This document shows, piece by piece, positions 3 through 57,929 of a stretch of 64,000 nt of DNA; position 1 is the first letter of the stretch, and every line of letters starts with the position of its first letter. The stretch covers positions 744,001 to 808,000 of the forward strand of contig OZ374562.1 in NCBI GenBank assembly GCA_977862235.1. Reading direction: 5' to 3'. The DNA comes from Dudresnaya verticillata (taxonomy: Eukaryota). The position numbers were made by a program, and so were the translations under genes. The notes beneath the pieces are model-generated. The model was not told the origin of the DNA. It searched no databases and saw only the letters and a program-made list of their open reading frames with translations.

Positions 3-410
3 CCATACCAGGAGCATTCACCTGGTATGACATGCGCACGGCCGGGCTGGCAAGATAGGGGAAATCCCCAAAGGAACTTCGGTCCCAAGCAGACAATCAT
101 CTGTCACATTTGCTACAAGCCTGGGCACGTTTCGCCAGAATGCTTCTTAGCATGGAAGGACTACCTGATGATTATCCTCAATTATGAGTCGCTAAGTGCG
201 GTCGACCGCGAGCGTGTGCCGGTTACGTCTTACATGAAGGCGAAAGCACAGGCACAATACGATGAGGCAAGTCCTCAAGGCCGACCCCAGGGACCGCCCA
301 ATGTGGTACCCCACACTAGCGAACGCCACCCTCAGGCGTTCGCGCCCGCTGGAAAGTCCCCTTCGAATGGGCGCGACGGACGAGCGGACATCCGCAATTC
401 GGAAAACTAG
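3..410 (+). CDS. gag: Gag C-terminus with CCHC zinc knuckle (partial)
   Basis: CHICYKPGHVSPEC is C-x2-C-x4-H-x4-C. The frame is open from the window start to TAG 408-410. Confidence 0.85.
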   Translation, partial: PYQEHSPGMTCARPGWQDRGNPQRNFGPKQTIICHICYKPGHVSPECFLAWKDYLMIILNYESLSAVDRERVPVTSYMKAKAQAQYDEASPQGRPQGPPNVVPHTSERHPQAFAPAGKSPSNGRDGRADIRNSEN

Positions 411-3400: not shown

Positions 3401-5558
3401 ACTGCACAGCATGTGTACGCAATCGCGTTATGCTACGCCGTAATACCAAGCTTATGAATCTGTTTCCAGCCAAAGCACCCCTGGAGTTTGTCTCCATTGA
3501 CATCTATGGCGAACTGATTCGTACGAAACGAGGCAATCGATTCCTCTTGGTCATCACAGACCGTTTCTCCAAACTCGTTCGGACAGTTCCGATGAAGAAG
3601 ATTACGGCTGCGAAAGTTGCCGAAGCGTTCATTACGCATTGGGTCTACGTCTACGGACCCCCGTTGTACCTACTATCGGATAATGGCGGACAATTTGCCG
3701 CAAAGTTGTTTCAGTCGTTATGTGGAACTTTGGGGATCAAAAACCTCTTTACTACAACCTATCACCCCCAATGCAATGGGCAAGTTGAGCGGCTCAACCG
3801 CACCATGCGCGCCGCGCTACTGCACTACGTTGCGGACCATCCGCGTGAATGGGACTTATTCTCAGATGCCATCACCTACGCGTACAATACGCAAGTTCAT
3901 TCTACCACGAACCTGGCCCCCTTCCAGTTGGTACTTTCCAGACCTCCACCCGCTCTAAGCGTCGAGGCACATCCCTCACTGGAACCAGTGCCGAGTTCGG
4001 CTACATTCCACGCCAAGTGGCAGTCCTGGCTCACAGGACTACTGTCAACGGCCACAAAAGGCGTTGACCAGACACAAGCGCGATACAAACGCAATTTCGA
4101 TAATAGGGTACGTCCCTCACGCGACGTCATCGGAGTAGACTCCTACGTCTACGTACGCAAGGAGTACTATCGGAAGGATACCCCAAAACACAAACTGGCG
4201 CCTATCACCGACGGCCTCTATCGCGTGAGTGACGCAAATGATAAGACGGTCACCGTCGAGAAGGACGGACCTGAATACGAGCGGATTTCCCGCGACAGAG
4301 TCGTGTCGGCACCCGCCCCACCAAGGGACGCGACCAACCAAGCCAACGCCGAAGGGACGGCAGATCCGATAGATGCGGAATTACCGTCAACAAACGATCC
4401 CAATAATGATCATACTCGAATGCAGTGCGCTGACGGAGCTACTGTGTCTCGCGGGGAAAATTCCCCAATTACTTTTCATGCTGTGGCACCAGCCATACAG
4501 CCACTAAATGATCGCTGGTTGGCGGATTTACCACCGCTGACGGTACCCGGACGCACCACTGGCGTCCGCGCACGGACTACCGCAATGCACTCGCTACCTA
4601 CCACACGCGCTGAAGCCGCCGCCCCCACTCCAACCCCTGCACCCGCAAGTCTGGAGCCGGAATCCGTGCCAGCGAACGACGCCCACGCGAATGGGCACCC
4701 CACTGCGGATCAACCACACGCCGCTACGAAAAGCACCAAGGCCGTCGACGGTACAGTAGGAGAGGAAATGCCTCGCCAGCAGCAACCTGCACACGATACC
4801 GGCACAACTGCCGCCCTGGGGCATACTCCTCAAGGGAAGCCCCTCCCTCAACCAACGAGAACTACCCTTGATAATGTGGATACCCCACAAGCGTCAACAA
4901 AGCCGGATATACTCCGCAAAGGCTCGCCTACTCGTCGAATAACCGAGAGCCCCGAGCCAGGGTCCCCTAGAGGAGCCGAAACCCGACCCGTTGATGGGAA
5001 GGATCACGCCCTCGACAGCGCGACACGCGATGTGTCACCAGGTGCGTCTAGAACGCAAGACCATCCCAAGGAGAATTCTCCACGCCCATCAGAAAGAGCG
5101 TCACATTTGACGACTGCATTAGGGAAATCCCTACGCGGCCTCTCGCGAGCCGAAGCCGCGGATCAGTAGTGGCAGGCTGCAATCAAGCTGCAACCGTGAC
5201 CCTTGGCACGCCAAGCCCCAGACGGAGTCGCCGTATTGCTGCCGTCGCGCCACGCGCGTCGCAGCTAGGCCCTCAGCAAGAGGATCCAGCTCAAGCACCG
5301 GCGCCAGATGACACCCTGTCACCAGGGCGTCGACACAATGGGGATACTCCGCCACGTGACGAGTATGTCATCGAAAAAGTGGTGAGCCACAGTTATGAGA
5401 ATACAGAACTGCTGTTCGAAGTCAAATGGTACGGCTACCCGTCCTCGCAAAATACATGGGAGCCCATACAACATCTACCGCGGAGTCAAGTTATCTCCTA
5501 TTGCAAGAGGAGGCGTCTCGGCGTCCCCTCCACCATCACCAAGGCAATGGTGGGCTAA
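401..5558 (+). pseudogene. pol: Gypsy pol (PR-RT-RH-INT-chromodomain), disrupted
   Basis: In the -1 frame relative to gag. Premature TGA at 923-925 and 2098-2100, frameshift near 1955, and a stop/frameshift at 5167-5169 before the chromodomain YVIEKVVSH..FEVKWYGYPSSQNTWEPIQHL (about 5360-5480). Confidence 0.93.
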
Positions 5559-7290: not shown

Positions 7291-8587
7291 CTAGACATCA
7301 GCAGGCCCGCTTGGGCCTGCTTCATCCTCGTCCTCTAGGCTAAACCCCTTATCGACAGCGACCTCGAGGAGCTCCTCGTCGCTGCCGCGGATGGCAACCT
7401 CGGGAATTCCCGTCCTACGCAAATAGCCGATTACGGCAATCCGCTGACTAAAGCTCAACCTCACACGACGAGCGTGAGGCTGGCCCACGGGGTCAGGCGA
7501 TGGCGGACGAATGGCTGGCGGCCGAACGATCGGCACGTTCGCAATAACAGGGCCGCTGCCGTCGCCACTTGCCTCACCCGTTTCGGTCGACGTTCCCGCC
7601 GCCCCGTTCGGAGCCTCATCAGCCGGCACTGTCGCAACCGGGCATCTCTCACCAACCGGCGCGTTGACCGTCATCGTGTCATCATCGGGGATTTCCCCAT
7701 TACTGCCCGCGTCGGAGGACTGTTCCTCATAATCCGACTCCGCAATGCCACCCGCCTCGGGGTCCACCAGGTAGCCTCTCGGCTGACCAGGCGGCATCGA
7801 ACGCGGGTGGCTACGTAACCAAGCGGCACGGTCCGCAGCGACGAAAGTGCGTGTCCAAGGGTCAAACCATGCCCAATCGCCGCAAGACGGGTGCCGACGC
7901 CCAGGAGAGAAATTGGTCGACGAGGAACTCCTCTTGTTGTTGCAAAGCGGGACTCTTTGGTCATCATGGTCCCAATCAACCTGGGCATAAAACCCCAACA
8001 ACACGCGGAACTCCGCTTCGTTGTTAACTCCACCGAGGACAATCCTCAAGTCCAACTGGTCAACGAGCGTCAGGACTGTGGGAGATATGTACCACATGCG
8101 GTACGTATCGTACAATTCCCACAGCCACTGAACGGCCGTCTTCGCCACGAACTACGTGTAGTACACCGTCCACAATCCCGACTGCGGGTAGCCGATAACA
8201 TGGTGTAACTCACCGCAGGAGCCAACTCGACGAGGAAACCCTCACAACACTCCACCGAGCCCCACTGTGGGACGGGCAGCCGCACATAACATCGGTCACG
8301 ATAAGTACGATGAATTGCGTCGATTTCGACATTAGGATAAGGCACCAGGAAGCCCAGACGGGAGCGGGCGCGACGCTTCCAACGAATCTTGTCCCAATAA
8401 GCGTTGTTCTCGCGTTTGCGCACAAAGCGGAATTCCGCACGAAGCTGCACGCCGAGTAACAGGCCCGATTGACGCACCCTGGGCTCGACCCCATCCCACG
8501 CATGCGGGATGGGGAGGTTCTCCAAGGCATCAGCATAGGGGATTTCCCCGCACCGCTCGCACTATTCCCGCCGCCCCCGTTTCCCAC
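7291..8587 (-). pseudogene. Antisense ORF in the 3' region of the Gypsy element, unknown function
   Basis: ORFs 8210-8587, 8070-8525 and 7291-8148 overlap in different frames. They join into one Trp-rich protein with an acidic/Pro-rich tail (..LWTVYYT*FVAKTAVQWLWELYD..WAWFDPW..). Confidence 0.65.
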
Positions 8588-8651
8588 TCGGGTGGGCCCT
8601 GTCCCAGACTGACAGACTCCAGCGAAATTTTCACTTTATCTTGTCTACACT

Positions 8652-9326
8652 TCACTTCCTGCAGTACTGGTACGGGATACTACCAATATCCTTTATGATT
8701 TCTCTCCTCTTCGCCGCATGCGTGCACCAATTGTATCCCCTACGGATGATATTTTCCAGCCTTTGTGGTTCCTTCTGTTCTCCATTCTCAACCCTATCCA
8801 TGCAACCGCAGTGTGGATCGCTCCACGTGTCAGAGAGCTTCACTTTCTTTCTACGCTTCTTGAACTCCTCCCACTCCCGCCCCTTGTACGAGAACTTGCC
8901 TTGCCCCCTGAAGAAACTTTCTGAATAGGACTGTGGTCCTGAATTGGTTGATTCCGCCCCGTACACATGTTTGTAGAACTCTGTAAAATTGCTCCTGTCG
9001 TAGAGGCGTACACTGCGGTCGGCAAGGCTGACTACCTCCATCTTCTCGTCGATGGCACTGCTCACCTCCCGGACAATAACATATTCCCCGATTCTGTGGA
9101 TAGCCTCCTGAAGTGCTTCCCAAGGAAGCCAGAACTTGTAAAGGTCGCGAATATCCCTTCTGGCCTTCCCTGACGTTAACGATACCATTTTGTTACGTTC
9201 TCTTTCCTGACCTGCGCCTGTCCCCGAATCAGGACTTCCTGTTTAGAGCTTTAGGTCGCCCTGTTCATCATCACTGCTTATTTGTATCGACTCTTCCACT
9301 TCGATTACCTGTTTGATGTCGCCCAT
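8652..9326 (-). pseudogene. Degenerate ORF of unknown function
   Basis: 178-aa ORF with protein-like composition. The frame appears to continue upstream through a stop to an ATG near 9326. No motif recognised. Confidence 0.35.
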
Positions 9327-9474
9327 CTCGAATGTGCGTCGAGGTAACCTTCCTCGTGCTGGCCGGAACACGAACAATTCGTAGTGCGAGGGGCCTTCGA
9401 TATGTACCATCTAGTAAGATCTAGAGGGCTCGGATCCATGCAACTACCTCGCAGCAGGGACTGTAATCTCAATC

Positions 9475-9543
9475 GGTATGTGGAACCATAGTAATGAACT
9501 GGAATAACGGTTATTCCAGTTCAGTACTATGGTTCCACATACC
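9475..9543. repeat. Near-perfect hairpin (34-bp arms, 1-nt loop)
   Basis: ggtatgtggaaccatagtaatgaactggaataac-g-gttattccagttcagtactatggttccacatacc, one mismatch. Confidence 0.95.
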
Positions 9544-9545
9544 CG

Positions 9546-9647
9546 ATGGTTTTTCCTGGCTAAATAATCGCCCTGAGCAGTATGGACGTGACACAGAAAG
9601 GGCGTGTCCATACTGCTCAGAGCGCTTATTTAGCCAGGAAAAACCAT
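9546..9647. repeat. Near-perfect hairpin (42-bp arms, 18-nt loop)
   Basis: atggtttttcctggctaaataatcgccctgagcagtatggac ... gtccatactgctcagagcgcttatttagccaggaaaaaccat, two mismatches. Confidence 0.95.
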
Positions 9648-10378
9648 GGGGACGTATGCAGGACACATGACGTGCGTCCGCACATTTTCCGCAAACAGTC
9701 TCCAGATTCGCATGACGTTGCTCACAGTAACAAACTTGTTCACGCCGCAGATTTTGTTATGAACTGTTCTGGAAATATCGGACATACCGACCTCTGTACA
9801 GTACGATTACAGAGACAGGATCAAAGAATATCCTAGTAGGAGCGTTTCTGCTCCTTGTCAGATTCATATCTGGGGAAGGATCGAGTATCACGAAGGCATT
9901 ACCAATCATTATTGCTGATGCCCTCGTCATATTCATAGCAATTATTATGAGTTGAGATCGTACGCGTATGCCCTAGAGACATTCCAACCGTCACATCTGC
10001 CGGGAACTATACTTGTCTGGTGATTCCCGCTGTTTCGACCTTTTACGGTCACTGTGGTACCTCTAGCGATTCCGGTCCGGGAAATTCTGAGTTGCGTGAG
10101 GTGACTACGAATCTCCTGCGCCCGCACGCCCGGAAGCTTTGTTTCCAGTACACGCTTCGTTGTCACTTTTAGGGTGATTCTGAGGCATTGAAACGTGAAA
10201 GGGACTTAGCTCCAACCAGGACCTACTCCCCAGCTGCTGTATTGTACGGAATATGCCCATTGTTGGAGCTTCCGCATTGGGAGTTAAGTATTGTCTCTGC
10301 ATTTCCCCCAACTCCGAGATCAACATTTTCTTCACAGTCATCTCATTGCCATTGCGACAGACCAACTGCATATGCGCG

Positions 10379-13300
10379 ATGGGGAGGAAGTCCAACAGAA
10401 CGAAGAAGATGCCCGTGACAAATGACCGTAATGAAGTCGGCCTGCACCAGCAACAGATTCTGTTCGCCGACCTGCTCGACGGTTCTCTGCTGAAGCATGT
10501 CGATCCGCTGGCCTATGTACCTCTCGCCAACGTGAGGCCGATCTCCAGGTCCGGAGTCGGACGGCTCAAGTGTATGTTCAGAGTATAAGGAGCGGGTTCA
10601 AGTCAGGGGATGGCGCATGCTCCGGAGGCGATAGGATATGTAGCAGGGAGTGACATTACAGGTATTATTGAGCTCACGGGAGTCCTTCGAAAGCATGTAG
10701 GAGATTATTTCCGAAGTACTCGCAACAAGGAATGAACGCACCGTTCCGAGAAGGAGATACAAGAAACCATGAGTTCGAGAGTGTGGCATAGCTGTAAGAC
10801 CAGCTGCGCCACGTGTGCACTGCTGTGCGCATGCTGTCAGCCGGTGGCGCCAAAGCCCACTGAACTGTAAGGGAGTGCGCAGTGGCGCCCACGTGTGCAC
10901 GCGTTCGCGTGTGACACTGAAACTCCCATGTAATTTCTACGTTTATTGTTGTGTAGTGTACAGCACCGTCTAGTGTAACGCCCTGCTGTCCTGCGCGCCG
11001 TGCACACGCACTCCGGCGCAGAGCCGTTGAGTGCGTGACACGCGCGCGCGCACTCTGGCGTCGAGCCGTTGAGTACGTGTGGACCGTTTCGCCCACGCGC
11101 GCCCCCGGGTTACCGTTACCCGTACGCGTCGACGCGTGTTGGGGCCCGCCGGCGTACCTCCCGGGTTGGTGCCGCCGCAGGCCCTGTAGTATATCTAGTA
11201 GTCGCCCCCCTGGGCTTGAGTAAACAAGGCAAGCCAGCCTACGCGAGGCTTACCCCTTTCTGCTTTGGGTTTCCTTCCCAGTCCTTCGCCCTACGGCTTC
11301 CCTCTTTCCCTAGCCGCCTAGGCTTTCCTTTTCCTTTCCCTACCGTCGGCTTCGTGCCGCCCCACTACGGGGACGCAGGGATCAGGCCGCTGCCGCCCGC
11401 GTACGGTACGCCCCGCTCGCGCTCAGGCTTCGACGCCGTTGATCCGCGACCGTCGACGGCGCGCGAGGCCGACACCACCGCTCTACCACCACCGCTACCA
11501 CCCTTCGACGGGTCTGGGTGCGACTACGAGACCAGCCGCGCTAGACGTAATTTCGACCTGATGTCTATCCCACAGAGAGGGTTCTGGTATGGTTTCGTAG
11601 ACGGCATGCACCGTTAGGTTACAATTATTGAGCTCATGCATACACAGTACGAGATGTGGAAGACATTCTCTTGGCCGGTTATGCATATCAAGGGCGGGGC
11701 GTCTCTGCAGGGTCTGAAACAGTTTGCAACAAACCAGAACCGCAAACATCAGTTTGCTTGTTATGTAGAAACCACGTTCTTTGACGAACTGAAAGGCCTG
11801 CGTGAAGAAGCCGACAGTCTGCAGGCTGAAGCCAATGGAAAAGGGCCGACAGCGAAAGCAGTTGCCGCTGCCTTTTATGGCGCTTCTCATCTTCACGAGA
11901 ATACAATCAGGCAAACAACCCAGGTTGTACTTAGATTGCATAGATCGGCTGTATATTCTATCGGGGAGATTGCAACACAGGAGGATGTAGACTTTGCGGC
12001 CTCGGTGTCCATTCGAAGTGCTGGGGCTGGAGTTTCCAGGCAACTCGTATTGCCTTCGGTCGACTGCCGAGTCTATCGGAATTTTATCCATGTATCTTCA
12101 CTGAAGTCTGCTACAGTGTTTATGAATGCCAGCCGTTCGCCAGACCGGGTACAGGCCCAGATCTGTGCCTTGTACAGGCTGCGGGAAAGGGCCAGAATGC
12201 ATAATTTCAGACCTGCACCTTACAAGGTCACAGTCGGGGAATTCGACAGAACAATAGACGCGTTGGTAGAGGTTAGAAAGTTCGAGAGTCTGAGGGAGTC
12301 CCAGAACTGGCCTGCAGCTAAGTCCGTTCTGGCGACTATTCTATTGCACTCGCGCAAACTGGACCTGGAGGTTATGTCGAATCGTGGGAACAGTCTCATA
12401 CTGAAGTCGATTCTGACCATGTACCGTGACAGCTGCCCGGGGGAGGCCCCGCATAAAATCGACAAATACGACCGCAGATTAGAAGTTGCGCAGGCACGAT
12501 CGTCGTCTAGCACAGATCCAACGCATCCTGAAGAAGTGAAGAGCCCTGACAGTCACATGAATCATGTGTCGTCGGGAGTGATCTTGAACAAAAATGCTTC
12601 TAAATCTTCCCCACAGACAGATGAAGAGAAGGCCAACAACGACAACCGCATTTATCCCGACCATCTGGGCTCCACTGCGAAAAGTGCAACTCGGGATGAG
12701 TCCCTTCCCGTCATCAACGACAATGGAGATGACGACGTCGCACCTCTCCTTTTTCACTCAACGGCCACTACAATCATATCAAAAAGATTGGATACTTGTA
12801 AGAGGCTGAACATGGATGATAGAGACGAAGTCGCAACACCGGACTAGATACTGAAAGCGGAAGGCCTCGAGTTTCACCAAATGTGCTGGCAGAGCTACAA
12901 CCAAAAGTACAGTAAAAGCGAGAGCAAACGGTTTGCCTTCATTCTGTCCGAAACCCCGTACGGTACCCCTGCCTCACAGTCTCGAGCGGGGAAATCATAT
13001 GACAACTACCTCAGAACTTCAGAAATGAACAAGTTGGCTGCGTTTTGCAGGCAGACAATCGCGCCGGGTGGTTGGGTGTTCATACTCGTGTCAATTGAGA
13101 CCTTTGACCCCATGAGACAGGCACTGTCAAAGAATGGTTTCGATTGCCCAACGTATGCATTCGTGATTCTGAAGGATACGGGCACTGTTCAGCAATCCAG
13201 GGGCACCGAGAGGCCTCAAAATGGCGCAGATATAGCCGTTTTTGGGAAAGCACCGGGCATGCATCCATCAGGTTCAGAGGCAGACTTGAAGAGACCATAC

Positions 13301-14110
13301 CACTTGTTTAAATTCCAGTATAAGAGGAAGCTCGCATGTATGTCTTCTGTTCCGGTCTTCAAGAAGAAATTGCTGAGACCTCAGACAAGATCGCCGGTTC
13401 TGACTGAAGAAAAGAATGTTGAATTGCTCGCGGAAGTGCTGAAAACGTTCAGCGCAGAGCATGGGCATGTTCTGCACATGTACGCTGGCAGGATGACGAC
13501 CAGAATAGCGTGTGTTGCCACCAGTCGGAAGTGTACATTCATCGGGCAAAATGCCGACACGTTCAGACATATACACGCAAGGCTATCGCGACTGGCGCAA
13601 GAGGCACAACGTCTCACCTAGGCAGCACCGGTGAAGAAAACATGTAATGCTTCCGAGCAGGCGTCTGAAAAGGTATGTGCACCGGACTCAGAACAAGCTC
13701 CCCTGCAGGCGGGGAGCTCAGAGCGTAAACGAGTGTCTTCTGAAGGGGTGTCTGAACATATGGAACCGTTGGCCAAGCTGCAAAACGTCGAGACAGGAGC
13801 AATGCCTGCCAAAGTCACGGGACAGAATGAGAACCAGGGAGAGGGGGAGACGAAGCCCAACGCCGAGAAAATTGTGGGGGAGATGAAGTCGCTCTCTTGA
13901 TTTAGGGATAGCATGCACGGTACTGCGTTTTCGCCCTTTCAAATGTAAGATCAGCATCTCATTGCAGTCTATGCATTCAAAGCGGCGACAAAAAGCTCCC
14001 ATTTCCGGTACCCCTACACGCATCGGGAGGTAGATGGTGAGGCCCCGACAACTTTGGGTGATATCAAAAGCATTTTCGCTAGGGACGTCAATCAGATGGC
14101 ATTAAAATGA
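10379..14110 (+). pseudogene. ParB-like domain + HTH fused to a beta-class N6-adenine/N4-cytosine DNA methyltransferase; split by a solo LTR and nonsense codons
   Basis: Removing LTR 10782-11574 plus one TSD copy restores one continuous frame, interrupted only by stops (10586, 10733, 11615, 12845, 13619, 13898, about 13946). ParB-like motifs: VRPISRSGVGRLK..WYGFVDGMHR..FATNQN..TFFDEL. MTase motifs: FILSETPY (DPPY-like, 12947-12961), IAPGG, EKNVELLAEVLKTFS..VLHMYAGRMTT..AC (motif X-I, about 13410-13520). The true stop is uncertain. Confidence 0.8.
10782..11574 (+). mobile_element. Solo LTR, family A
   Basis: Termini TGTGGCATAG...CTATCCCACA. 5-bp TSD GAGAG at 10777-10781 and 11575-11579. Homologous to 16037-16973 and 52007-52807. 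Strand inferred from a TATA-like box followed by a pyrimidine-rich tract. Confidence 0.93.
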
Positions 14111-16036
14111 ACTAAGGGAACGAGCTTTTAACGCTCATTGACGAATCAACCGAGCCTTTTGAGACTAGCTTGCGCCCCTTCGCTTCGTCTCCTTACAATA
14201 GATCGACACCAATCCTCTGCTAACCATGTCCAAAGCATCCACCATACAACGCGCGCAAATCAAAACAGTCCACTCCGCGTCCGGGAACCCGCTCCAGGTT
14301 ACACCGCGCTCTCTGGTGGCCTGAGAACTTGGCCACGGTTCAAGTTCGGTTGCAAATGGTGTGCTGCGCCCACGACAATACCCACTCTACTGATGCTCGC
14401 TCCTGGTATCGCTTGCTCCACCCCGCGATTCACGGACAGCGTTGTCATCTTCTCCACCTTGCTTTAACCGAGCTTCACGCATGCAAGACCGCGACTGGGC
14501 CGGGTTCGCCGCGCACTTGTGCAGTCGCTTGGACATCTGGGGCCTGCTGCTCGCAGCAGTAGGAAGGCCGGGGCGGTAGCAGCGTAAGCGGGAAACGTAC
14601 AGCAGGAACAATCGGAAATCGCTGAGTCTTGCGCTTCACGTAAGCGTGAGAGAACGCTTCGTAGGCCATGCCTGGGTTGAACATGTCGAAAAAGAGGGCA
14701 CGGCAGTGCGCGCTGTACATTCTGTTTCACCGTGGATTTTTTATAGGTATGTGCTCTCCTCGTACTGGAGAAGGTATTCCGTATTATTGATAATACGATG
14801 ACAGTTCTGATTGCTTCCAAAAGCCGAAAAGCGTTCTGAGAGCTTCCCTTTTTGCACTGCCGAGAACAGCTGTTTCGTTATCGTTGGGCCCGCAAGGAAA
14901 ATATCTGTTGAAAAGCATTACTCTCGTAGAAAATATGAAGCCTTTTTAGATATTCCCGTTCTGGCCCCATCAATACCCACTGAGAATCATTTGACCGAGC
15001 ACTTCCACGAAAAGCTATGTTGTATTATCCATACTGCACTTTTAGTTTCGCGGAGCTTTCCCTTTGCAAAACCTAAACTATTGTCGTGCCCCTGAGCACA
15101 ATCGTCTTGATCCTGACGCTTCTAACCACAATGATTGTGGGTCTCCGCGCGCTTCTCCAGAAAGCCGCAGAATCTCGTCGCCCCCTTGTGTCACGACCCG
15201 CACCTCCGCTCGTGTTTCTCAGATGGTGTGTCCCAAATCAAGCTTGCGGCATATGCTACCTCGGAGCACTACGTTCGTGGCCTGCATAGTGCTATCTCCA
15301 ATTCAGCCCATGGTGATGACAGTGATGCATACAATCCCAGATGTGCTCGCGCACCCTACACAATGCGCCCTGCCTTGCCCTGGGCGCATACCGCTCTCTA
15401 CAGCCCAAGCACAATAGCGCCATGTGACTATGAGAACTGCCGCGTTGCCGTGCCGATCACTCACCAGCACCCGAGCCCGCATGGGCGCGGTGGATATGTC
15501 TCTGTGCGACCCTAAGCGCGAAGATAACGAGCTGAGTGAGGCATACGCGAGAAAACAGTCGTTTTCATGCTCCTCGAGGCTCTCAACGATGTCTAGCAGA
15601 CACGTTGCGGGGTTGTCGACGGCGGAAAGCTTGCCCTACGGCACGTTCTTGCCCTACGGCAAGTTCTTGCCCAACGGCGCGATGACATAGATCGCTACCG
15701 TGCCCCGTGTGCGGGTGCAACGACACGCTGATGAAGACACGCCGCCCCAGCTCGATTCTCATTCTCTGCATCGTCTGGTTCTACCCCGCTTTCGACGCCC
15801 GATACGACAAGAACCGACCTAGCACACTATTATCGCCTATCCTAGCACACTATTGTCGCCTATGGATCCCACGTGCGCAGGCAGACACGGCTTCATTATT
15901 CTGTTCAGTGGAGGTATGCACTGACTGTCAAGCTGCTGATCTCAGCAGGGGCGAAGGTCAATTGTAGCAGAAAAACCTACTTCTGATTACTGCGGATGAT
16001 GGAAGGCTCGAGGTTGTGCAGATAGGACTTGATACA

Positions 16037-16973
16037 TGTGGCATAGACGTCAGGTCGAACTGAAATCTAGCTGCGCTGGTCGATCAGTAGCACCCAGACC
16101 CGTCGAAGGGTGGTAGCTGTGGTGGTAGAGCGGTGGTGTCGGCCACGCGCGCCGTCGACGGTCGCGGATCAACGGCGTCGAAGCCTGAGCGCGCACGGGG
16201 CGTACCGTACGCGGGCGGCAGCGGCCGGATCCCTGCGTCCCCGTCGTGGGGCGGCACGAAGCCGACGGTAGGAAAAGGAAAAGGAAAGCCTTGGAGGCTA
16301 GGGAAAGAGGGAAGCCGTAGGGCGAAGGACTGGGAAAGAAACCCAAAGCAGAAAGGGCAAGCCTGGCGTAGGCTGGCTTGCCTGGTTTACTCAAGCCCAG
16401 AGGGGCGACTACTAGATATAATACAGGGCCTGCGGCGGCACCAACCCGGGAGGTGCGCTGGCGCGCCCCAACACGCGTCGACGCGTACGGGTAACGGTAA
16501 CCCGGGGGCGCGCGTAGGCGAAACGGTCCAGACGTACTCAACGGCTCGACGCCGGAGTGCGCGCGCGCGTCACGCACTCAACGGCTCTGCGCCGGAGTGC
16601 GTGCACACAGCGCGCAGGAAAGCAGGGCGTTCGACCGCCGCTTACACTAGACGGTGCTGTACACTACAAAACAATAAACGTAGAAATTACATGGGAGTTT
16701 CAGTGTCACACGCGAACGCGTGCACACGTTGGCGCCACTGCGCACTCCCTTACAGTTCAGTGGGGCTTCGGCGCCACCGCTGACAGCGTGCGCACAGCAG
16801 TGCACATGTGGCGCAGCTGGTCTTACAGCTGCGCGCGCCACTGCGCACTTCCTTACAGTTCAGCGGGGCTTCGGCGCCAACGGTTGACAGCGTGCGCACA
16901 GCAGTGCACACGTGGCGCAGCTGGTCTTACAGCTGCGCGTGCGTGGCACAGCTGGTCTTACAGCTATGCCACA
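16037..16973 (-). mobile_element. Solo LTR, family A
   Basis: Termini TGTGGCATAG...CTATGCCACA. TSD ATACA at 16032-16036 and 16974-16978. Inverted copy of 10782-11574 with an internal tandem duplication of about 100 bp. Confidence 0.95.
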
Positions 16974-17047
16974 ATACAAACGCATAGAATGGTTTCAATG
17001 CGGAAATAAGAGGGCAGCTGGATAAGCATATGGAGGTTCTCGATTAC

Positions 17048-19478
17048 CTACCTCCTCTTCACCTTGCTACGTCCAAGGGCCGCCATGACGTCGCAGAATT
17101 GCTTTTGCGCCATCATCGATGATAATTGCTTGATGGCATTCCTAGAAAGGTCACTGCTGCACGCGACGCGTGCACGGACTCTTCCTGAAAGCCCCGCCCC
17201 ATTGAGGAATCGAAGAAGTTCCAGGAACATTTTCTGGGACTTGCGAACTAACGCTACAACTCACTGGTGTGGTCTTGATTGAACCTTTACTCAATGTAGC
17301 TATGCAATCCTTGCGCAATAGTCTTGATGAAGACTCTCGCGAATCTTCTTTTGTACATTGACGGGGATGCGAAGTGCTTGTGAATCCACTAAATTCCACG
17401 AGCACCGAGCCAGTTGGAATCTTTCCAATCCATGGCGCTTAGTCATCTAAGATGGAAGGTTGATACCGCAGGCTATATGCGTCATGCCGTTCTTGCTCAA
17501 TTGCTTCGTACCAAGATATCTGCAGCTGCACCGATTTTGCCTTCCTGCCTCGTGTGCTGCGCACCACCTCTTGAATCTTCGCAATCTATAAGGGGCATTC
17601 CGGAGTGCTGCCCTCATAGCGAATGGCAACGAAATTATTGCGCAAGAATGGAACTTGTGTGTCCTCCATTAGGTCTCTCTTGTTTACTTCGGGACGGAAC
17701 TCGAGCTCGTGCTCTTCTAGCCCTTCCCTTGCGTATTTCCCATTGGTTTCCAAGACAGGATCTAGATCCCAGTGAAAGGGTTCCGTCCTTTCGCGATAGA
17801 TTTCGTCCCGCAACTTCCGAAGCTCTTCATGTTTTCTACGTATTTTATCCGCGCTTCTTCGGATCGAATCCAATCACCAATTTCTTTCAAATCGGGGGGA
17901 GAACCCGCCCGAGATGGAGGGGTTTTGGACAAGTCAGGGGGAACACAATGAAACCATTCTGCGAACTGCATGTGAGTAGCGGTTTCCACTCATCGTCGCA
18001 CTGCACACGGGCCTGGCACCCCGTCTGGAAACGCGCATTAGCTCCTTCCGCCTCTCCCGCCACCCTAAAGAAACGGAAGAACCTGTAGTGTGAAAAGGTT
18101 TCCACCTTCCCTGTACACTTAGAATCCTGACAAAGACCTGAGAAGCCTGTAATGTGCAGTATTCTTGCAACGTACGGCTGCGGCTGGTAGGATTTGCTCC
18201 GCACTTCTATCATATCATCCATAATTACGGAATCTCTTGTCTCCAACCTCCTTACGGTACAACTGAAAGTCTGATCAATATCAGGGTGAGTTTATCCTAT
18301 CGGCAGAAATAAGGTTTGGACCTCTTGAAAAAATCCCACGCTACTAGACTTTCCAGGTAGGAGAACATGAACCTGTTCTTGTTCTCTCTGGTACAGTTGT
18401 CCAATTGCAGCAGCAGCGTTGGTTGCAGATTCCCACTTGCTTGCATGAGGCTGAGCGATCTATGTATTGCTTCTATTAAATGATTGGCACCGGATTCGTA
18501 CTCCGCCGTCATGACGAAAAGGCACAGCCTATTCTTAGGTCCATGTTCCAGGACGCCAATACGTTTCACCCTGATTGCATGGTCTACTGTAGCGTTCGTG
18601 TTGACAAAGAAGTGCGGCAGCCCAAACGCGGACTGTTCTGCCCCGTCTACCATTATAGAGTAATACTCGTCAGAGAACATTATCGCCTTCTCGGCAGTCC
18701 TTTTGTACTGAACGCGCCCTTTCCAGCCCATGGCCAGATGCTGTCGCTTGCGCATCTTAAAGGGCCTCCCCGCCCGCTTGTCGGTCCCTGTCTTGGCAAG
18801 ACCATCGCGAATCTCCTCACACTCTGTGCACTTCGTCAAGCGACGTACTTTTCGGGCCCTAATGTGGGCAAAGTGTGCCTTGCATGTAGCGTAAAAGTAG
18901 ATCGCTCTTGCAGGTGCCTCACCACTATACAAAATCCCCTGGTCTTTTGTGAATTGCTCGTACACAGTCTTCCTGTCAAAGTATGGCAGATGCAATTCCG
19001 CTCTGTCCGGCATACGGTCTGCAGTAGCTTCAGAAATCCGCTCGAGGTGCGAAAAGAATCTGTTCCGTCGGTCAGAATTTGCGTCTCAAGGCGTGGCAGT
19101 GATAAGGGACGACGAGCCGCCGAACGTCTTGACAGACGTTTGCAAGTCACGTGAAAACCTGAACGCTTTATCCATGAAATTGTAGCACAATAGAGCGCCA
19201 TTGAACCGGTACAATCTGTCAGGCTGGAGCAGGCGGGATAGATAGTCCCTCCGTCGTTTTTGCATCATCAGAACACGACGAGCTTCAGCCTTGAGGTAAA
19301 TCTGCTCACAGGCATGGAAACATTTCTTCGTAGAACAGCACTTCTTGCGCTCCCAGCCTTCCGTGTCTATCCTCGCTAAAGCAGCCTTGTGTCTTATCAT
19401 CAAGGCAGTCTCGTCCTTCTTGGGCCTCTTACTGACACGTGAACGACGACGATACATCCGCTTCTTGTAAACAGCCAT
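17048..19478 (-). pseudogene. Sola-like (DUF7869-type) DDD/E transposase, frameshifted
   Basis: CCSTKKC..; MPDRAELHLP; KCTEC..QH; SIMVDGAEQS..LPHF; GAN; LLLQLDNCTRENKN; then after a frameshift FLPIG*THPDIDQTFS (about 18265-18310). C-terminal fragments continue to about 17050. The superfamily assignment is by motif memory. Confidence 0.78.
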
Positions 19479-19574
19479 TACTCTCGTACCGTCTCCTCTA
19501 CCCTCCTGAGAACGGACATGATGAGCTGCTCCTCCAGAATCTGCGTCCTCATCCCGGTAATCCGGATGAGAGAA

Positions 19575-20249
19575 CTACTCTGTTCCATCTACTGCTTCGT
19601 CAGCTGACCTGCTAGCTGGCGTTGCGACATCGTCAGCAGGGTCTCCCTGTGCGCCATCCCGATTGACAAGGTCAAGAGTGGATTCCCAATCCCCATCATC
19701 TTCGCGATAGCCTTCCCCGTCGATTATGTCTGCCACTTCCCTGCCCTCCACGTCGTCTCCCTGGTCTGGTCCTGCTTCTTGGTTTGGACCTGCTCCGTGG
19801 TTTGGCCCTGCTTCGTGGTCTGATCCTGCATCCTGGGTTGATCCTGCTTCTTGGTCTGGCCCTAGTTCCTGTTCTGGCCCTAGTACCTTGCCTGACCCTA
19901 ATCCCTGGTCTGGTCCTAGTCCCTGGTCTGGCCCTGCGGTCCCTGGGTCCGCTTCGGCCATATTTTTGTCGTCTTCAATAATCCCCTTCACCTTGTTATG
20001 AGAGATGTGGTTTGCTGGCTTTCTAGGGCGTGGTCGTAGTGGGGGCTTTTCCACTGGGGTGTACTCCAGAGGAGAATTCTCATCTCTATCATCTTCAGGC
20101 ACAATTTCACACTTTCCCCCGGGTGACATGAATGGGTCTGGATCCCGCACGACGCTGTCTCGACCTCCGGCTTCTGCAGCTACAGGCGCGTTAGGAGGGG
20201 TATTAGGAGGCCCCCTGACCGGCCTTGGGCTGCAAGTGGTGCCCTTCAC
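19575..20249 (-). CDS. Acidic low-complexity ORF with hexapeptide repeats, probably the N-terminal extension of the transposase gene
   Basis: 224 aa, same strand and directly upstream of the transposase; GPDQGL/GPNQEA repeats. Confidence 0.45.
   Translation of the reverse strand: MKGTTCSPRPVRGPPNTPPNAPVAAEAGGRDSVVRDPDPFMSPGGKCEIVPEDDRDENSPLEYTPVEKPPLRPRPRKPANHISHNKVKGIIEDDKNMAEADPGTAGPDQGLGPDQGLGSGKVLGPEQELGPDQEAGSTQDAGSDHEAGPNHGAGPNQEAGPDQGDDVEGREVADIIDGEGYREDDGDWESTLDLVNRDGAQGDPADDVATPASRSADEAVDGTE
19760..19939. repeat. 18-bp tandem repeat, 10 copies
   Basis: Consensus about cctggtctggccctgctt; encodes the GPxQxx repeat on the minus strand. Confidence 0.9.
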
Positions 20250-21127
20250 TGGGCCCGGTTTTTGTGAAGAACCGGATCAGGGTATTCCTCACGGTCCCAT
20301 TCAGGTAACGTTTCCTCTCCAGGGTTCCTCTCTGGCCCTGACTCTATCGCCTCCTTCAGATACACTGCCACCATGTCCTCCAACTGGTACAAATCCGAAC
20401 AGTGTTCACCTTTATCCATGTTTTAGCATCCTAGGAACCGCCCTGTTAGATTAGTACTGAAGCAGGCTGGGTAGGCGCTCTGCTCCGGGTCGGCAGTGCA
20501 CTCGGTGGATCGCTACCCATACCTCCCCGAGGGTTGCTGCTTGCTGAGAGAATGACCGCCAAGGACTGTGCAGAAACGACCGCTTGTGTCCTCCGTGCCG
20601 GGCAGTGAAAGAAAAAGAGTGGCACGAGCCATATGTTTTCCTCTAAGAGTGAGCGAGACGCGCGCACCCCGCTTGACATGGGGTTGAGTACTACTTGCCT
20701 CCGCGGATACAGGGCGACCTGAGGCTTCTTCCATAGCTTTAAAACGCGAGAGAAGGGGCCAGTCCGGCGATGCTTGGGAGGGAGGCAATCAGGAGAGCTC
20801 GGAGGTCACCGGGAGGGTAAAGGTGCAGTGCAGTCACCCATCGTTGGGAGGCATGTCTTAAATAGGCGAGGTTTGCGATTAGCGGCAAGATATCAGGGTT
20901 CCAATTACTGGGTCAGGAACTTGTCTTTGCGGCTATAAACTTCGCATTGGGTGTGGTGTCTCGAAGAACAGCGGATTCATAGTTTGTCGTAGACAAGCGC
21001 TGCGGCCTAGGTACCTTTGGGAGTCGCGTCGTGTAAACCATCAGGACTTCACTGCATTGGAGTCGGATCGAGGGCTTCATAACAAGGAGCTAGTATCAGC
21101 TGCAGTCGAACGGGTTAGCATGAACGA

Positions 21128-21490
21128 CGGGTACGCGCGCGCCAATGAGGCCGGCGAACACGTCGTGCTAGTTGCCCGACGGGCACTCGCGTGGCAATGA
21201 AGCGGGCGAGCACGAGTGACGGGCACTTGCGCGGCAATCAAACGGGAGAACACCAGGGAAGTGCACACGCACGGAAATGAAGCGGGCGAGCAAGAGCGAT
21301 GGGCACACGCGTGGCAATGAAGCGGGCGAGCCCCAGCGACGGGAAGAATGTGCACCGCAGCGAGGAGGGGCACCGGGCTGGGGGAATGGCCGAGTGACAC
21401 AAGGCTGCTGTGAAGCTAGTGTGATCGCGGCCCTGGGGGCGAGCAGGAGCGACAAACAGACGCGCGGAAATCAGGTGGGCGAGCAGCAGG
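21128..21490. repeat. Degenerate repeat array (about 40-50 bp period), possibly subterminal
   Basis: Core gcgtggcaatgaagcgggcgagc and variants near 21137, 21190, 21229, 21269, 21309 and 21462. Confidence 0.7.
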
Positions 21491-21899
21491 AGAGGCGGGT
21501 AGGAGCAGCTGGCAGTGGCGAGAGCAGTGGTGCGGCGAGAGCAGTGGTGCGGAAAGTGCGTTGGCGGCCCTGGGCGCGTGCAGGGCGAGGGCAAAATCTA
21601 ATCAAAAATGGTTGGCAGAAATTACGAAAAGTGGGAAACTTTCGGAAACGTTTCAGGGGGTAAACAGACTGTGTTTAGTACGCCGTAACTTCTGCATTAC
21701 TTAAGCTATGGACAAAACGATTTCACCACTGTTCTCAGCTTACGCTTCTGTTTCCAACAAGGTAACGAAACCGGGGTACAGTTTCATACTGATTTGCAAC
21801 GTTGATTCTGAAAATCTCGAAAGTAGTGTTATATTTGTGTGCTACATCAGTCCCGGGTGCAATCGTCACCTCCATCATGTCCCATAAATGCGAATGTGC

Positions 21900-23480
21900 T
21901 ACCTGCACCCCTACATTTATCCTTAGGGACAGTAATGCGCGGTACCACTCCTGGTGTTCATCCTAAAACCCCTGCGGGCAAGCCATTGTAGACTGGTCCT
22001 CCTCCAGATTCTACATTGTCTTTCCCCTTGGCTACCCACGTGTACTGCACGAAATGAAAGCCAGGGGCAGAGCACAATTGAGCTCTGTATCACCAACCTG
22101 CCATTCTGGATAAAACCTTTCGTCTCGTCGTGTACTTGGGAGGGGAGAAGTGACCACCCCCCTGCTCGTAAACCTACCATAATCCCAAGCTGCCATATCC
22201 CACGATCGGAAATCCCAACACATCAGGCAGCTAGTATCTCAAACCCCGCCTTAGCGAACCACCTACTCCGTGAACGCACCCGTACCCAGTGCGGTACTGC
22301 CTTGCCCAACTTCATCCGCCGCTTCGAAGACGCTACCACCCCCGATGAGGCCCAAGAAAGTATCTCCCAGCTTCCCAAAATACTTGCGAAGCCCTGGTCA
22401 CGCAGAAACAATCCCCATCCGCAGCGAAACACGCCTTACTGGCGTGAGCACTTCTTTGCAATGCGCAAAACGGCATCTACGCGCCCTTCAGCGGATGCAA
22501 TGAGCAACTGACCCCTCACGTCGAGCTGCTGCAGAAGCATCCTATCATTTGGTACAGCGTCGCCTCCCGACCCGCTTCCGTGCTATAAAACGGGCACAAA
22601 AAGCGACAAAAGCAACAGCTGCTCATGCAACGAGACTCAGCCTCTGTCAGCGTGATCCGCGCGCAGCAACGGAAACAACAACGACGCGTACGGCAACAAC
22701 TATCGTGGGTTTGTTCAGCCAGCCCAATTCACATACCACATGGAATCACTCCGGAACCCCACCTGCCCCCGATGCCGGTGATTCTACGTCCCTCCCACTT
22801 TCGGCACTCCATAAGGACAGCTATACTATGCATGAAGTTTGAAACCCCCATACGAACAGATAACACGCACGTGGAATTTCTCAAGGCCCACCCCGATTTG
22901 TCGGCTGACGCCATGTTCGACATCTGGAACACCTGCAGAAAGTTTGGGATTTCCCCCGCACCTGCGCAAAAGGTCTCCTCGTTCCCATACACAAGTGTGG
23001 ACCGACCCATGATCCAGCAAACTACTGACCACTCTGCATGCTTGCAAATTTAGGAAAAGTGATCGAGAGAGTTATAGCATACGAAATAGAAGCCGTCTTC
23101 GCCACCATTGCATGCAGCTTGACTTTCAGCCCTTTTTGCATTCATAAATTGCTATTGCACTCACGCTTGTATTGTGTGCTTCTGGAGATGATTACATTGG
23201 TGAGTGGGACCTCAAGAGCGTATATGATCTTGACGACAGACACACGCGATTGCCTGCTACAAGGAAAAACTCTACCCTCACCGGACTGTCATGGTCACCC
23301 ACACCCTAGCGGCACTTTGAATCCACACAGCCCGTGATGTAAGGAAAGAGACATCAGAAGTTGGATGTGGGGTAATAAAGGGATCCCAACTCAGTCCGTT
23401 CCTTTTCAACCTATTCATTAATTCTCCAGCCTATGAGCTCGGCATGTGGTGCATAGCATCGGCAGGGTGACCCTGAGCAC
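21900..23480 (+). pseudogene. Non-LTR retrotransposon (LINE) ORF2 relic: endonuclease end and RT start
   Basis: SDH (APE C-terminus), PYW, TDNTHVEFLK, NY.P(L)CML, NLGKVIERVI across several frameshifts. Confidence 0.7.
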
Positions 23481-23879: not shown

Positions 23880-24470
23880 TGAGTATTGGCGGTCACATAC
23901 TCACCAGTCTGACTGAGCGAAAAATAGGAGCTAACATGTTCAGTCCGCTGGGGACGGATTTTTTAGCTTGTAATAGGACGACACGTAGTACATCACATGC
24001 GCATATGCTTTCAGGTGAAGTAGAAAGAGGTAACATTGTTCAGAGTATTGATATTGTACTGTATCTGGACGTATAAACAATTCGCAGACATGTTCCTTAA
24101 AATGAACCGTGGTTTGTTTCAAGGAGGTTTCTGTGCACAGAAGCAATGCAATTCCTTCTGCATGGATGACGTGTTCAAACTGTGGCTGAAGTTGGCTGTT
24201 GTACAGTATTTTAACCGGCTTCAGCTACAATATGGGATGAAAGAATAATAAGTGGAAGAGAGAAACGACATATACAGTATGTTCTATAGAAAATCGGGAT
24301 TATTTAATAAGTAGGATAGTGCTTTATGTGATTAGCACTATTATTTTTAATGAACGGGTTTCTGGGGGAAACGATTAGAGGCGGAATGCTAACTGGCAGG
24401 GGCAGGGGAACGTAGTGATGTCCAGATCTTTAGGTCAGGAGTCACAGAATAGAAATGGGGACATGGTGCA
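23880..24470. repeat. Dispersed repeat, direct copy of 53749-54235
   Basis: Shared blocks such as ttctgcatggatgacgtgttcaaactgt and agagaaacgacatatacagtatgttctatagaa. This copy has about 140 extra bp at 23945-24087. Confidence 0.85.
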
Positions 24471-26038: not shown

Positions 26039-27734
26039 ATGGATGAATCTTCTGCTTCAGGGTGCGTACACGGATACGGAACAGAACTACTCGGAAGACA
26101 TCTGGAAGAAGCCAGTATAGGGAGACTGGTGAGTTTAGGAAGAAATATGTACCCATTCTACCGAGTTGCTCCGATGTCGGCCTCGCTTTCCATCTTAGAA
26201 GGAGCAATTTCGCCCTATGACTCGAATATTTTGCGATGCATGTGTGCGCTCAGCGACCCGAGGAGAGGGCTAAAGACAAAATGGAATTGCAAAGAGAAGG
26301 ATATCGGTCGTTTGATTTCGCGTTGATCCAGAAGCGGTGGTAGAAGAAGATCAGAGTTTAAAGGGATGAGAAACAGAACTTCGAAGAAATTTGATTGTCC
26401 GGCTGCTGTTTCAACCGTTCCTTTGTCTCTCAGGAGTATTGAAACGAAGTCATGGAGTAAATAATCTAATAGTTATTGACTGTCAAGGGTGCAAAGAAAA
26501 AGGGAAGAAATGTTTTCTGTGGTAAAATCCGTTCGGACTGCACATCGCAACCACGAGGTTGAGGAGTAAGGAACTGAGCGTCTTACTCTGAGCAGAACAG
26601 CGGACATTTTTGCCCATGAAGGGGTACGACATGCCGTTTCCGTATTTTTGAACATCTATCCGGGCGGAAAGGGAACGATCATAAGAGCTAGCACATACCT
26701 CCAGGAGAGATTCCCGGAAATTTCAGTTCCTGAATCGGTGCTTCGGAAATGCGTCGCGGAGCTGAGAAAACATGGAGACGAAGTTAATGGAATTGTCAAT
26801 TCCCTACGTTCGATGGAAAACAACGGTGTCGTTGAACATTTATCGAAAACACTGAGCGACAGCACAAGAATACTAACAACTGCGCTTTGGGCCTACAGTG
26901 GCTCCAGGGAGCTCCAAAGGTGTGATGAACATTTTTTCTGGGATTCAACTCACAACTTGACAAGATATGACTACCGATTGTCAGCTTTCATTGCTGCAGA
27001 CTCGGAGTCAGAGTCAAGATCGGTCATGTTTGCTTTCAACCTCCATAAGATAATTGAAGCTTTTCAAAGAATGTTGGCTGCCTATTCTACAGCATTTAAA
27101 GGAAGACTTACTAGAGCGAAATTTACAGATAGTGATGAGGCTATTCATGTATCTATTCTAATCCCACCCGGTTCAGGAAGTTTTAGAATCTTCTATGTGT
27201 ATATCACTTGTTCGATATTAATGGCAAGAAAAAGGTTCAGGGACTTGTACCTACTGACGGGAGCTTCTTCTGGACTGGATTTAGAAAATCATTATCTATG
27301 TGCCTTCAATGCACAATTACAGAGATGCTTGAACGGCTGTGGAGAAAGATGCTGAACGAGTCGCTCCCGATTGGAATCGGAACTTACAAGGCTGGAAAAT
27401 ATCTCGCGAAACACGTCTGGGCGGAAAGAGAACAGTGGTGCGTTGCACATTTCCGAGATATTCTTACTCTTGGAGTTTCGACAACCCAGCGGTCTGAAGG
27501 ATGGCATGAATTCTTGAAGGCCGTTTTTAAACTCAAAGCATCTGAATGGAATGCCTTCACGATTGTACATTATCCTCAAACGACAGTTCTGAGAAGAACG
27601 AAGAAGAAAAGAGTTGTCATACAGGTTCCAGCCGCTTCAGGGAGTTCTATTTTGACGTACGCAAGGCTAAGAAAACTTTTGATGTTGCTAGGGGATTCAA
27701 GCTTCGCATGTATACAGCTGAAAAGAGGTGTCTA
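26039..27734 (+). pseudogene. Mutator-like (MULE) transposase relic
   Basis: RTSKKFDCP..HRNH (FAR1/WRKY-like finger), FFWDSTHNLTRYDYRLSAF..D, FTDSDEA, LCVYHL, W..F..LGVSTTQRSEGWH. Confidence 0.85.
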
Positions 27735-27852: not shown

Positions 27853-28555
27853 TGTGGCATAACGAATACTCCACAATGGCCCGAAGACGTCTCGCACTGT
27901 AAGCGATGGCCTCGGAGCCGAACGGGTGGCCTCGTAGCCAAACGGAGAACGAAGAAAGGAAAAGGGGGTAGCGTGGGAGAGCGGGGCGATCGACGCCGGG
28001 GACACGGTGTCAACGAATACGTGTGCGGAAAGGAGAACTGAGAGCTAACGATCACCGGGGATAATTGATGGTTCGCGTCGCTATTGAAAGCAAGACTCGA
28101 CCATATCCGCGAACACGAACTCGAAGACACCGAAAACGAAGAAGAAGGCGTTTACCGTAGGCTCTGAGGTCCGGGCGCTAGTCGCGTACCGGGAACCCTC
28201 GGAAGTCGTGCCAGACGACTGTATTAATACTAATACACGAGCAATAATACGCGTCGACCCGGGAGACAGTTCGCTCTCGGCTGATCCGTAACGGCCTCAG
28301 AGCCCGCGAACGGTAGTCTCGCGTATTGTGGCGGTTGCGTATCACGCCATTAATGCACACGGAGGCGCACGCGCGTCGTGGGCCTCGGAGCCGTTCGCGC
28401 CGGAAACAAACAGGAAACACGGAGGTGTCAGCAATTCGAATGCAGTAGCGCACTGTAAGGCGAATGCCATCGTGACGCGCGTGGTCACGAAGTCACTTCG
28501 AAATTTGTATTCCTCAATTATTTTCAAGTAAACCACGGAGTGAATTTGCGACACA
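27853..28555 (-). mobile_element. LTR fragment, family B
   Basis: Starts TGTGGCATAAC and is collinear with LTR 59548-60264. The far terminus is eroded and no TSD is visible. Confidence 0.85.
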
Positions 28556-28592
28556 CCTGAGGACATTCCAATCAGGCCAACTACTTCCGCGT

Positions 28593-35932: not shown

Positions 35933-36061
35933 CGCGGAAGAATGCCAGCAACCTAGCTTAAATCAGCTAGCAGCCGTTTCACCAGAGTAGTAGTACACTT
36001 ATAGGTGTATACTACTCTCTACGTGCCGGTTGGGTGACTCCTCTGTCACCCGAGTCCAGGA

Positions 36062-57853: not shown

Positions 57854-57929
57854 ACGAAAACGATGACGGAGATATTCTCAGCTCAAAACCAACGGTGTGA
57901 GCTGAGAATATCTCCGTCATCGTTTTCGT
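57854..57929. repeat. Perfect 32-bp inverted duplication inside the Copia coding sequence
   Basis: acgaaaacgatgacggagatattctcagctca-12 nt-tgagctgagaatatctccgtcatcgttttcgt. Confidence 0.95.

Follow-up and report, generated by a model that had tools for sequence, protein, structure and literature searches.

A convergent pair of Sola-like transposase and ParB-methyltransferase pseudogenes in Dudresnaya verticillata, the likely remnant of one large DNA transposon

Large DNA transposons with ParB-like and DNA methyltransferase (MTase) cargo are already published, as passages on the element Sola1-1_Ec32 of the brown alga Ectocarpus (PMC12477816) and on Bostrychia elements in a preprint (bioRxiv 10.1101/2025.02.11.637652) describe this kind of transposon. 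According to the former, Sola1-1_Ec32 measures 21,549 bp, has AACCG..CGGTT ends, a 282-bp terminal inverted repeat (TIR) and a 4-bp target site duplication (TSD), and carries opposite the transposase strand a gene for a 1104-aa ParB-like/N4-N6 MTase, for which self-modification was proposed (PMC12477816). The preprint passages report giant Plavaka (EnSpm) elements with PAG1-3 from Bostrychia and other red algae, and they cite the VANDAL (Mutator-like) transposons of eudicots, whose VANC was shown experimentally to remove methylation (bioRxiv 10.1101/2025.02.11.637652). ParB-HTH-fused Dam MTases of the chlorophyte type and phage ParB-Tls loci, with a prokaryotic or phage origin, are described in passages of a further study (PMC4738411).

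The window analysed here, a stretch of 64,000 nucleotides of Dudresnaya verticillata contig OZ374562.1, is packed with mobile elements: Gypsy pol and a chromodomain lie towards its left end, the remnant of a MULE occupies 26570-27352, and solo LTRs are present. For the block 9475..21673, a first-pass annotation had proposed a giant transposon in which a plus-strand ParB-MTase gene and a minus-strand Sola-like transposase gene converge and are similarly decayed, and it had based their linkage on adjacency alone. Both genes are real, converging and dead (Table 1). PF01555 and PF25273/DUF7869 matches lie on opposite strands, and the extent of decay is indeed similar, the MTase gene having 7 stops in 979 codons and zero frameshifts, and the transposase gene 3 frameshifts as well as 4 stops within 703 core codons; both genes also sit on long terminal branches in their trees. 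The two genes together span 10.4 kb, or 8.6 kb once two LTRs are subtracted. Adjacency has been superseded as the basis of their linkage by the same pair standing head-to-head in three other loci (L004, L008 and L013) and by six size-matched contigs, and recurrence of transposase and ParB-MTase in other DNA records makes it likely that they belong to one jumping element. The core of the earlier proposal is thus supported by other loci and by the published Sola1-1_Ec32: with high probability, the block is what remains of one large Sola-like cut-and-paste transposon with ParB-MTase cargo. Rather than a single case, the pairing represents a family.

As in the passages on Sola1-1_Ec32, the cargo combines an N-terminal ParB-like domain with an N4C/N6A MTase domain in one protein, and it lies opposite the transposase strand in the window as well as in L004, L008 and L013, the recurrence of the pair being our ground for treating it as one element. 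Unlike in the complete Sola1-1_Ec32, no ends were found in the window, and the two were compared by description rather than by sequence. With the Bostrychia Plavaka elements, as portrayed in the preprint passages, the block shares the format of a large DNA transposon, a PF01555 methylase and ParB as cargo, inverted repeats near ParB and a proposed self-marking. There, however, the transposase is of the Plavaka/EnSpm type and the two cargo domains sit in separate proteins, an MTase-SET fusion (PAG2) and a fusion of ParB with a 2OG oxygenase (PAG3), whereas here ParB and MTase form one protein, and neither SET (E<=0.001) nor an oxygenase was found in 50 long ParB-MTase homologs or in the window. 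The systems in the passages of PMC4738411 likewise join a ParB-type module to an N6-adenine MTase, by fusion or by linkage; that family (Group 2, M.EcoKI/M.TaqI-like, from chlorophytes and chytrids) is set apart by description from the PF01555 MTase found here, which in the window's family has the beta-class order with DPPY before the SAM motif. VANDAL, as cited in the preprint, offers the parallel of a transposon-encoded accessory protein altering the epigenetic state of its own element, as is proposed here, but the cargo in our case is predicted to add an amino-methyl mark.

Table 1. Coordinates of the features of the block within the window (strand left empty where none applies).
Feature	Position	Strand	Remarks
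Hairpin	9475-9543		34-nt arms, 97%
Hairpin	9542-9651		46-nt arms, 93%; top-scoring of 5 hairpins in 64-kb scan
ParB-MTase pseudogene	10376-14110	+	~980 codons, divided by solo LTR
N-terminal part of ParB/Srx domain	10376..10781	+	2 stops; tblastn, 7 intact homologs, E 1e-12 to 1e-19
Solo LTR, copy 1	10782..11574		793 bp, TG..CA, TSD GAGAG; within ParB domain, later insertion
Remainder of ParB-MTase	11580..14110	+	5 stops; end of ParB (DGMHR), HTH and helical region, linker, N6_N4_Mtase, barrel
N6_N4_Mtase domain	~12850-13600	+	ETPY, HMYAG where relatives read DPPY, DMYGG
C-terminal barrel of ParB-MTase	~13840-14107	+	~100 aa
Spacer, possible third cargo gene	14111..16036		decayed ORF-like stretches, e.g. 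14394-15515 (+), 15686-15967 (+)
Solo LTR, copy 2	16037..16973		TG..CA, TSD ATACA on both sides; internal 104-bp duplication
DUF7869 (Sola-like) DDD transposase pseudogene	17370..20734	-	start ~20734, end near 17370; stops, at least 3 frameshifts
N-terminal barrel remnant of transposase	20734-~20400	-	
Low-complexity linker of transposase	19760-19935	-	18-bp repeat; followed by Cys-rich region
Catalytic core of transposase, then C-terminal domain		-	motifs DGAEQ, DNCTRE, THPDID
Tandem array, 40 bp	21177..21343		4.2 copies; 0.45-0.6 kb upstream of transposase start

The reading frame of the MTase gene can be followed through its intact homologs. An 887-aa relative, P0001, with 45% identity to the window MTase piece, and six further intact homologs align in one frame to 10376-10789 and then to 11576-~14107, and excising LTR copy 1 together with one TSD restores the frame just before DGMHR. 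The two LTR copies are 94.3% identical in opposite orientations, so that the later solo LTR that the first-pass annotation had seen between the genes is confirmed and joined by a second copy inside the MTase gene. PF01555 is found in all seven of the intact close homologs, and the window MTase domain itself matches at E 1.2e-5, slightly below the curated cut-off. With 244 clusters at E<=1e-30 the family is large; within its tree the window gene is sister to P0001 (support 0.95). For the N-terminus, the first 245 residues of P0146, to whose family the window gene aligns, were modelled with a pLDDT of 93; the top 12 rows of a Foldseek search are all ParB, Noc or PadC (best E 0.003), VIA aligns PadC over 98 residues (Z 9.7, rmsd 2.6), and HTH proteins match residues 171-242 in VIA. 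According to this model, the cargo begins with a ParB fold followed by an HTH fold. The best PDB matches of the MTase profile are amino-MTases including DpnA, and passages of PMC8885841 state that DPPY predicts N6-adenine rather than N4-cytosine chemistry; the cargo, a beta-class MTase with DPPY, is therefore predicted to make probably m6A and not m4C. The window copy lacks the motifs of an active MTase, reading ETPY and HMYAG and having 7 stops and an LTR insertion, whereas its closest relatives have them. The small Cys-rich ORF remnants noted earlier between the two genes did not gain in substance: a Pfam search of the spacer gave no significant match (best E 0.004, below the cut-off), and no relatives were found among the loci and proteins compared.

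The transposase pieces match PF25273/DUF7869, a family that we take to be Sola-like, at E 5.8e-19 and 6.3e-9, and 21 longer homologs were matched, the best at 47-50% identity. Three Asp motifs (DGA[DE]Q, DNC[TS]RE, H.D[IV]D) are conserved in the window and its relatives, and their conservation suggests that they form a catalytic DDD triad. Such a triad is reported for Sola transposases in passages of PMC10741241. A Plavaka/EnSpm identity was rejected, as Plavaka and EnSpm models match neither the transposase pieces nor five intact homologs, all of which match PF25273 instead; a sequence search of the PDB with the transposase profile found no relative. The earlier Sola assignment is consistent with the DDD triad and otherwise leans on a presumed link of DUF7869 to Sola, DUF7869 and PF25273 having returned nothing in a literature search.

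Both proteins contain an SH3-like barrel of ~100 residues, located at the N-terminus of the transposase and at the C-terminus of the MTase. A profile built from six MTase C-termini matches the N-termini of the transposases P0047 (E 3.8e-25) and P0045 (8e-22), the two among 21 transposase homologs with the barrel at this position. The start of the window transposase matches P0047 (43% over 42 aa, E 6e-7), and the barrel is present as a remnant on both window genes. Its model is a small beta barrel for which fold searches return weak SH3-like, Tudor, KOW and PWWP rows (Foldseek E of at least 0.5, VIA Z<=4.5), so that a role as chromatin reader is a lead only; a structure-atlas search with the barrel gave no usable match.

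Scanning metagenome contigs with the transposase profile yielded 24 loci, 14 of them close and 10 (L014-L017, L019, L020 and L022-L025) set aside as distant or short before flanks were counted; none of these ten has a real MTase match (L017, E 0.001 over 70 aa). The loci L004, L008 and L013, found by the transposase alone, each carry a ParB-MTase homolog on the opposite strand 1.4-2.4 kb upstream of the transposase match, with profile E values of 1e-104 to 1e-255, and L008 fits both genes in about 8 kb. The genes are head-to-head in these loci as opposed to tail-to-tail in the window. The pair thus occurs in three of the five close-relative loci having at least 2.5 kb of upstream sequence; the MTase is absent at L006 (flanks of 5.4 and 4.5 kb) and L021 (2.5 kb upstream), and therefore not all of these transposases carry it. 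In the transposase tree, L006 groups apart with L005, L009 and L012, whose available flanks contain no MTase. The co-occurrence suggested by the first-pass annotation accordingly holds from the transposase side, while scans of metagenome and genome contigs with the MTase profile gave zero loci. Viral contigs gave no hit with the transposase profile and, with the MTase profile, a match (L001, E 1e-3 over 37 aa) that was treated as noise.

The sizes of the contigs encoding the homologs provide a second line of evidence. Six of 38 transposase contigs are identical in bp size and source to one of 65 MTase contigs (8748; 9690, 10330 and 12365; 11185 and 11236 bp), where a jittered null gives a mean of 0.25 and none of 200,000 trials reaches five; among transposase contigs of at least 8 kb, six of nine have such a match. 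These six contigs, which represent three independent families in the window's own clade, very likely carry both genes. P0001, the sister of the window MTase, and the transposase P0047 come from contigs of equal bp size. The divergence of the two proteins is correlated over seven pairs (Mantel rho 0.92, 2 of 5040 permutations), three of which rest on equal contig size alone. Comparison of the gene trees, which had been proposed as a check, gave two shared splits, grouping L004, L008 and L013 (support 100/100) and L008 with L013 (100/97), and no resolution of the branching order within the window's clade in either tree. As L004, L008 and L013 have one assembly prefix in common, the deepest of the shared splits may stem from kinship of their hosts.

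The hairpins on the left and the repeat array on the right, ending with cagactgtg at 21673, had been taken as the bounds of the element. The features are there, as are the letters cagactgtg at 21665-21673, but the repeat arrays end at 21343 and 21552, short of the supposed terminus. The hairpin pair lies 0.7-0.9 kb upstream of the ParB-MTase start. In L004, stacked hairpins (2366-2480) precede the MTase by 0.7-0.85 kb, and at this position none occur in L008 or L013; repeats of 41 bp precede the transposase by 0.5-0.8 kb in L008 (4497-4633) and, weakly, in L004 (3042-3109), and are absent in L013. The likeness to the window is positional, with no detectable sequence similarity. Given that they stand at the distances seen in the relatives, both the hairpins and the 40-bp array resemble internal, gene-linked upstream elements, the array being likely internal or subterminal, and they are outermost in the window because the genes converge here. 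Minus-strand ORFs are present left of 9756, and a structure-atlas search with the ORF 8655-9242 gave no usable match.

Sola elements are characterised by a TIR of 11-1124 bp and a 4-bp TSD. In this old and interrupted copy, a scan for a TIR together with a 4-bp TSD returned 3 candidates, compared with 0-4 in 15 shuffles, in agreement with the first-pass annotation, which had found no matching TIRs. The strongest candidate, 7901/24483, falls within another ORF and was equalled in 1 of 15 shuffles, and 258 pairs of 20-mers with at most 5 mismatches include none that is convincing among the pairs listed. No convincing TSD was found in 10 related loci, and a 22-nt arm pair starting with GAGAG in L012 was discarded as a TIR for lack of a TSD. 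Since neither TIR nor TSD rises above chance, 9475 and 21673 are unsupported as termini.

Several other explanations of the block were considered. That two unrelated fossils became neighbours by chance in a transposon graveyard would agree with a window dense with elements, with missing termini and with 3 kb of unassigned spacer; this is largely refuted, and in our view very improbable, given the recurrence of the pair, the contig size matches, the correlated distances, the matching decay and the shared domain. The ParB-MTase could instead be a promiscuous cassette that is swapped among transposon superfamilies, so that the pair seen here would be recent or loose. Red-algal accessory genes do move among Plavaka, Mutator and Zisupton elements, according to passages of the Bostrychia preprint (bioRxiv 10.1101/2025.02.11.637652), the MTase family is large, gene orientation varies, and 7 of 13 MTase contigs of at least 8 kb have no size match among the 38 transposase contigs. 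Against this, the two proteins diverge in step down to an MTase identity of 25-30% and share the barrel, which argues for a long partnership within the clade, and we regard a swapped cassette as improbable.

Two further alternatives accept one element and differ in what the cargo does. Its main role might be that of a clamp or scaffold that binds DNA or chromatin and assists transposition, with methyl transfer being dispensable. Of 116 aligned sequences, 86 extend over the MTase domain, and of these 25 read DPPY, 4 DPPF and 57 neither; the entire clade of L008 lacks DPPY/F in long open ORFs, L008 itself, a full-length linked relative with an intact ORF, reading AIPS in place of DPPY, and passages of PMC4738411 describe catalytically dead MTase domains in DIRS1 elements. 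All the closest full-domain relatives of the window, on the other hand, keep DPPY (P0001-P0004, P0017, P0023, P0032, P0083 and P0235), and with the window's nearest relatives in this group, its ancestor was probably an active writer. Moreover, loss of DPPY/F tracks loss of the ParB motif DGxxR, which, among sequences with both domains, is intact in 17 of 21 with DPPY/F and in 9 of 37 without (Fisher p 4e-5, ignoring kinship); these linked losses suggest that the two activities, where present, function jointly. We regard a mainly accessory role as unlikely. Alternatively, an active MTase might act not on its own element but on DNA of the host or the target site, or in trans on other elements. 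This would sit well with a hairpin position common to only one of three linked loci, but a fusion in cis to ParB-HTH fits an MTase that acts locally, and the Bostrychia ParB cargo genes adjoin tandem inverted repeats in the preprint passages (bioRxiv 10.1101/2025.02.11.637652); we consider a target other than the element itself distinctly unlikely.

The explanation we prefer, and hold to be probable in full, is one Sola-like element whose cargo would have bound the element's own DNA and marked it with N6-methyladenine. The transposase would have cut and pasted the element. Bacterial ParB loads on parS, and the ParB-like domain, which has DGxxR in DPPY-bearing members, would have loaded on inverted repeats within the element, for which we infer the hairpins at 9475-9651 to be candidate sites. 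The fused beta-class amino-MTase would then have marked nearby element DNA, probably with m6A, which may have countered silencing by the host or set the timing of transposition. Through the SH3-like barrel, both proteins may be brought to the same chromatin, or one to the other. Judged from the motifs, self-methylation is plausible only for relatives keeping DPPY, as the window copy reads ETPY, and for the DPPY-bearing members the chances that self-marking is the cargo's job appear evenly balanced. The window copy is a fossil and contributes little alone. A wider and rather unlikely extension would be an old, widespread eukaryotic clade of DDD transposons with a two-protein system derived from prokaryotic partition, in which a CTP-type ParB clamp loads on hairpins, slides and writes m6A, and a duplicated barrel, at the end of the writer and the start of the transposase, holds both proteins on the same chromatin or binds them to one another; entire sub-clades would afterwards have been stripped jointly of clamp and catalytic motifs, retaining the protein as a pseudo-enzyme scaffold.

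The shared barrel, the clade-wide motif loss and the co-divergence are not mentioned in the passages on Sola1-1_Ec32, nor was a mention found in the literature searched; algal supplements and Repbase may cover them. Self-marking transposon writers were proposed twice in algae in 2025, in both cases as proposals without experimental test in the passages concerned. The intact DPPY-bearing members P0001, P0023 and P0235 have likely cognate transposases, so that self-marking can be put to a direct test. Should it prove true, eukaryotes would be making use of a ParB clamp, and m6A would have a path into their chromatin.

In the window, the SH3-like barrel of about 100 residues is encoded by both pseudogenes of the putative Sola-like transposon, the ParB-MTase and the DUF7869 transposase, whereas in each of three length-matched pairs of an MTase and a transposase homolog, taken as likely partners with records of equal source and length, it is present on one partner only. 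The barrel lies at the transposase N-terminus in P0001/P0047 and at the MTase C-terminus in P0023/P0042 and P0235/P0074.

On the left of the element, family and atlas searches with the decayed minus-strand ORFs returned no match, and a weak PHD-like piece overlaps the hairpins upstream of the MTase gene. This ORF chain may belong to the Gypsy element as an antisense gene, or it may be additional cargo. On the right, decayed ORF pieces carry motifs resembling those of a LINE endonuclease/reverse transcriptase; a Pfam search with these pieces gave no match. They would bound the element on this side.

Elsewhere in the window, ORFs with RT and RNase H-like stretches, similar in sequence to a DIRS/Ngaro-type retroelement, had no Pfam match at E 0.05. 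The solo LTR has a third relative, partial and more diverged (~75%), and a perfect hairpin is located away from the putative transposon.

Coordinates of flanking and dispersed features in the window
Feature	Position	Strand	Remark
Gypsy-type pol with C-terminal chromodomain	320-5555	+	PF00385, E 3e-11; 3' LTR not located
Decayed ORF chain	7294-8151, 8073-8561, 8655-9242	-	part of stretch 7294-9756
PHD-like piece	9514-9756	-	E 0.023
Decayed ORF pieces	21900-23400	+	LINE-like motifs
Dispersed repeat pair	23881-24467 / 53749-54235		76-85% identical
Dispersed repeat pair	27886-28558 / 59579-60253		81% identical
ORFs with RT and RNase H-like stretches	34041-36733	-	from sequence letters
Solo LTR relative	52013-52550		
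Hairpin	57854-57929		32 bp, 12-nt loop

Overlapping inverted repeats at the end of contig L008 (19-124), which carries both genes head-to-head, lie right beyond the MTase gene and could mark a subterminal region of the element on this contig. Eukaryote-type DUF7869 transposases also occur within records labelled as Bacteroidota MAGs (contig L026 and protein P0060), whose sources are probably eukaryotic contigs binned into these MAGs. In contig L002, a SET-domain ORF (2948-3493, +; PF00856, E 8.7e-17) is situated immediately 3' of a related DUF7869 transposase and is possibly a second type of chromatin-modifying cargo for this transposon group.
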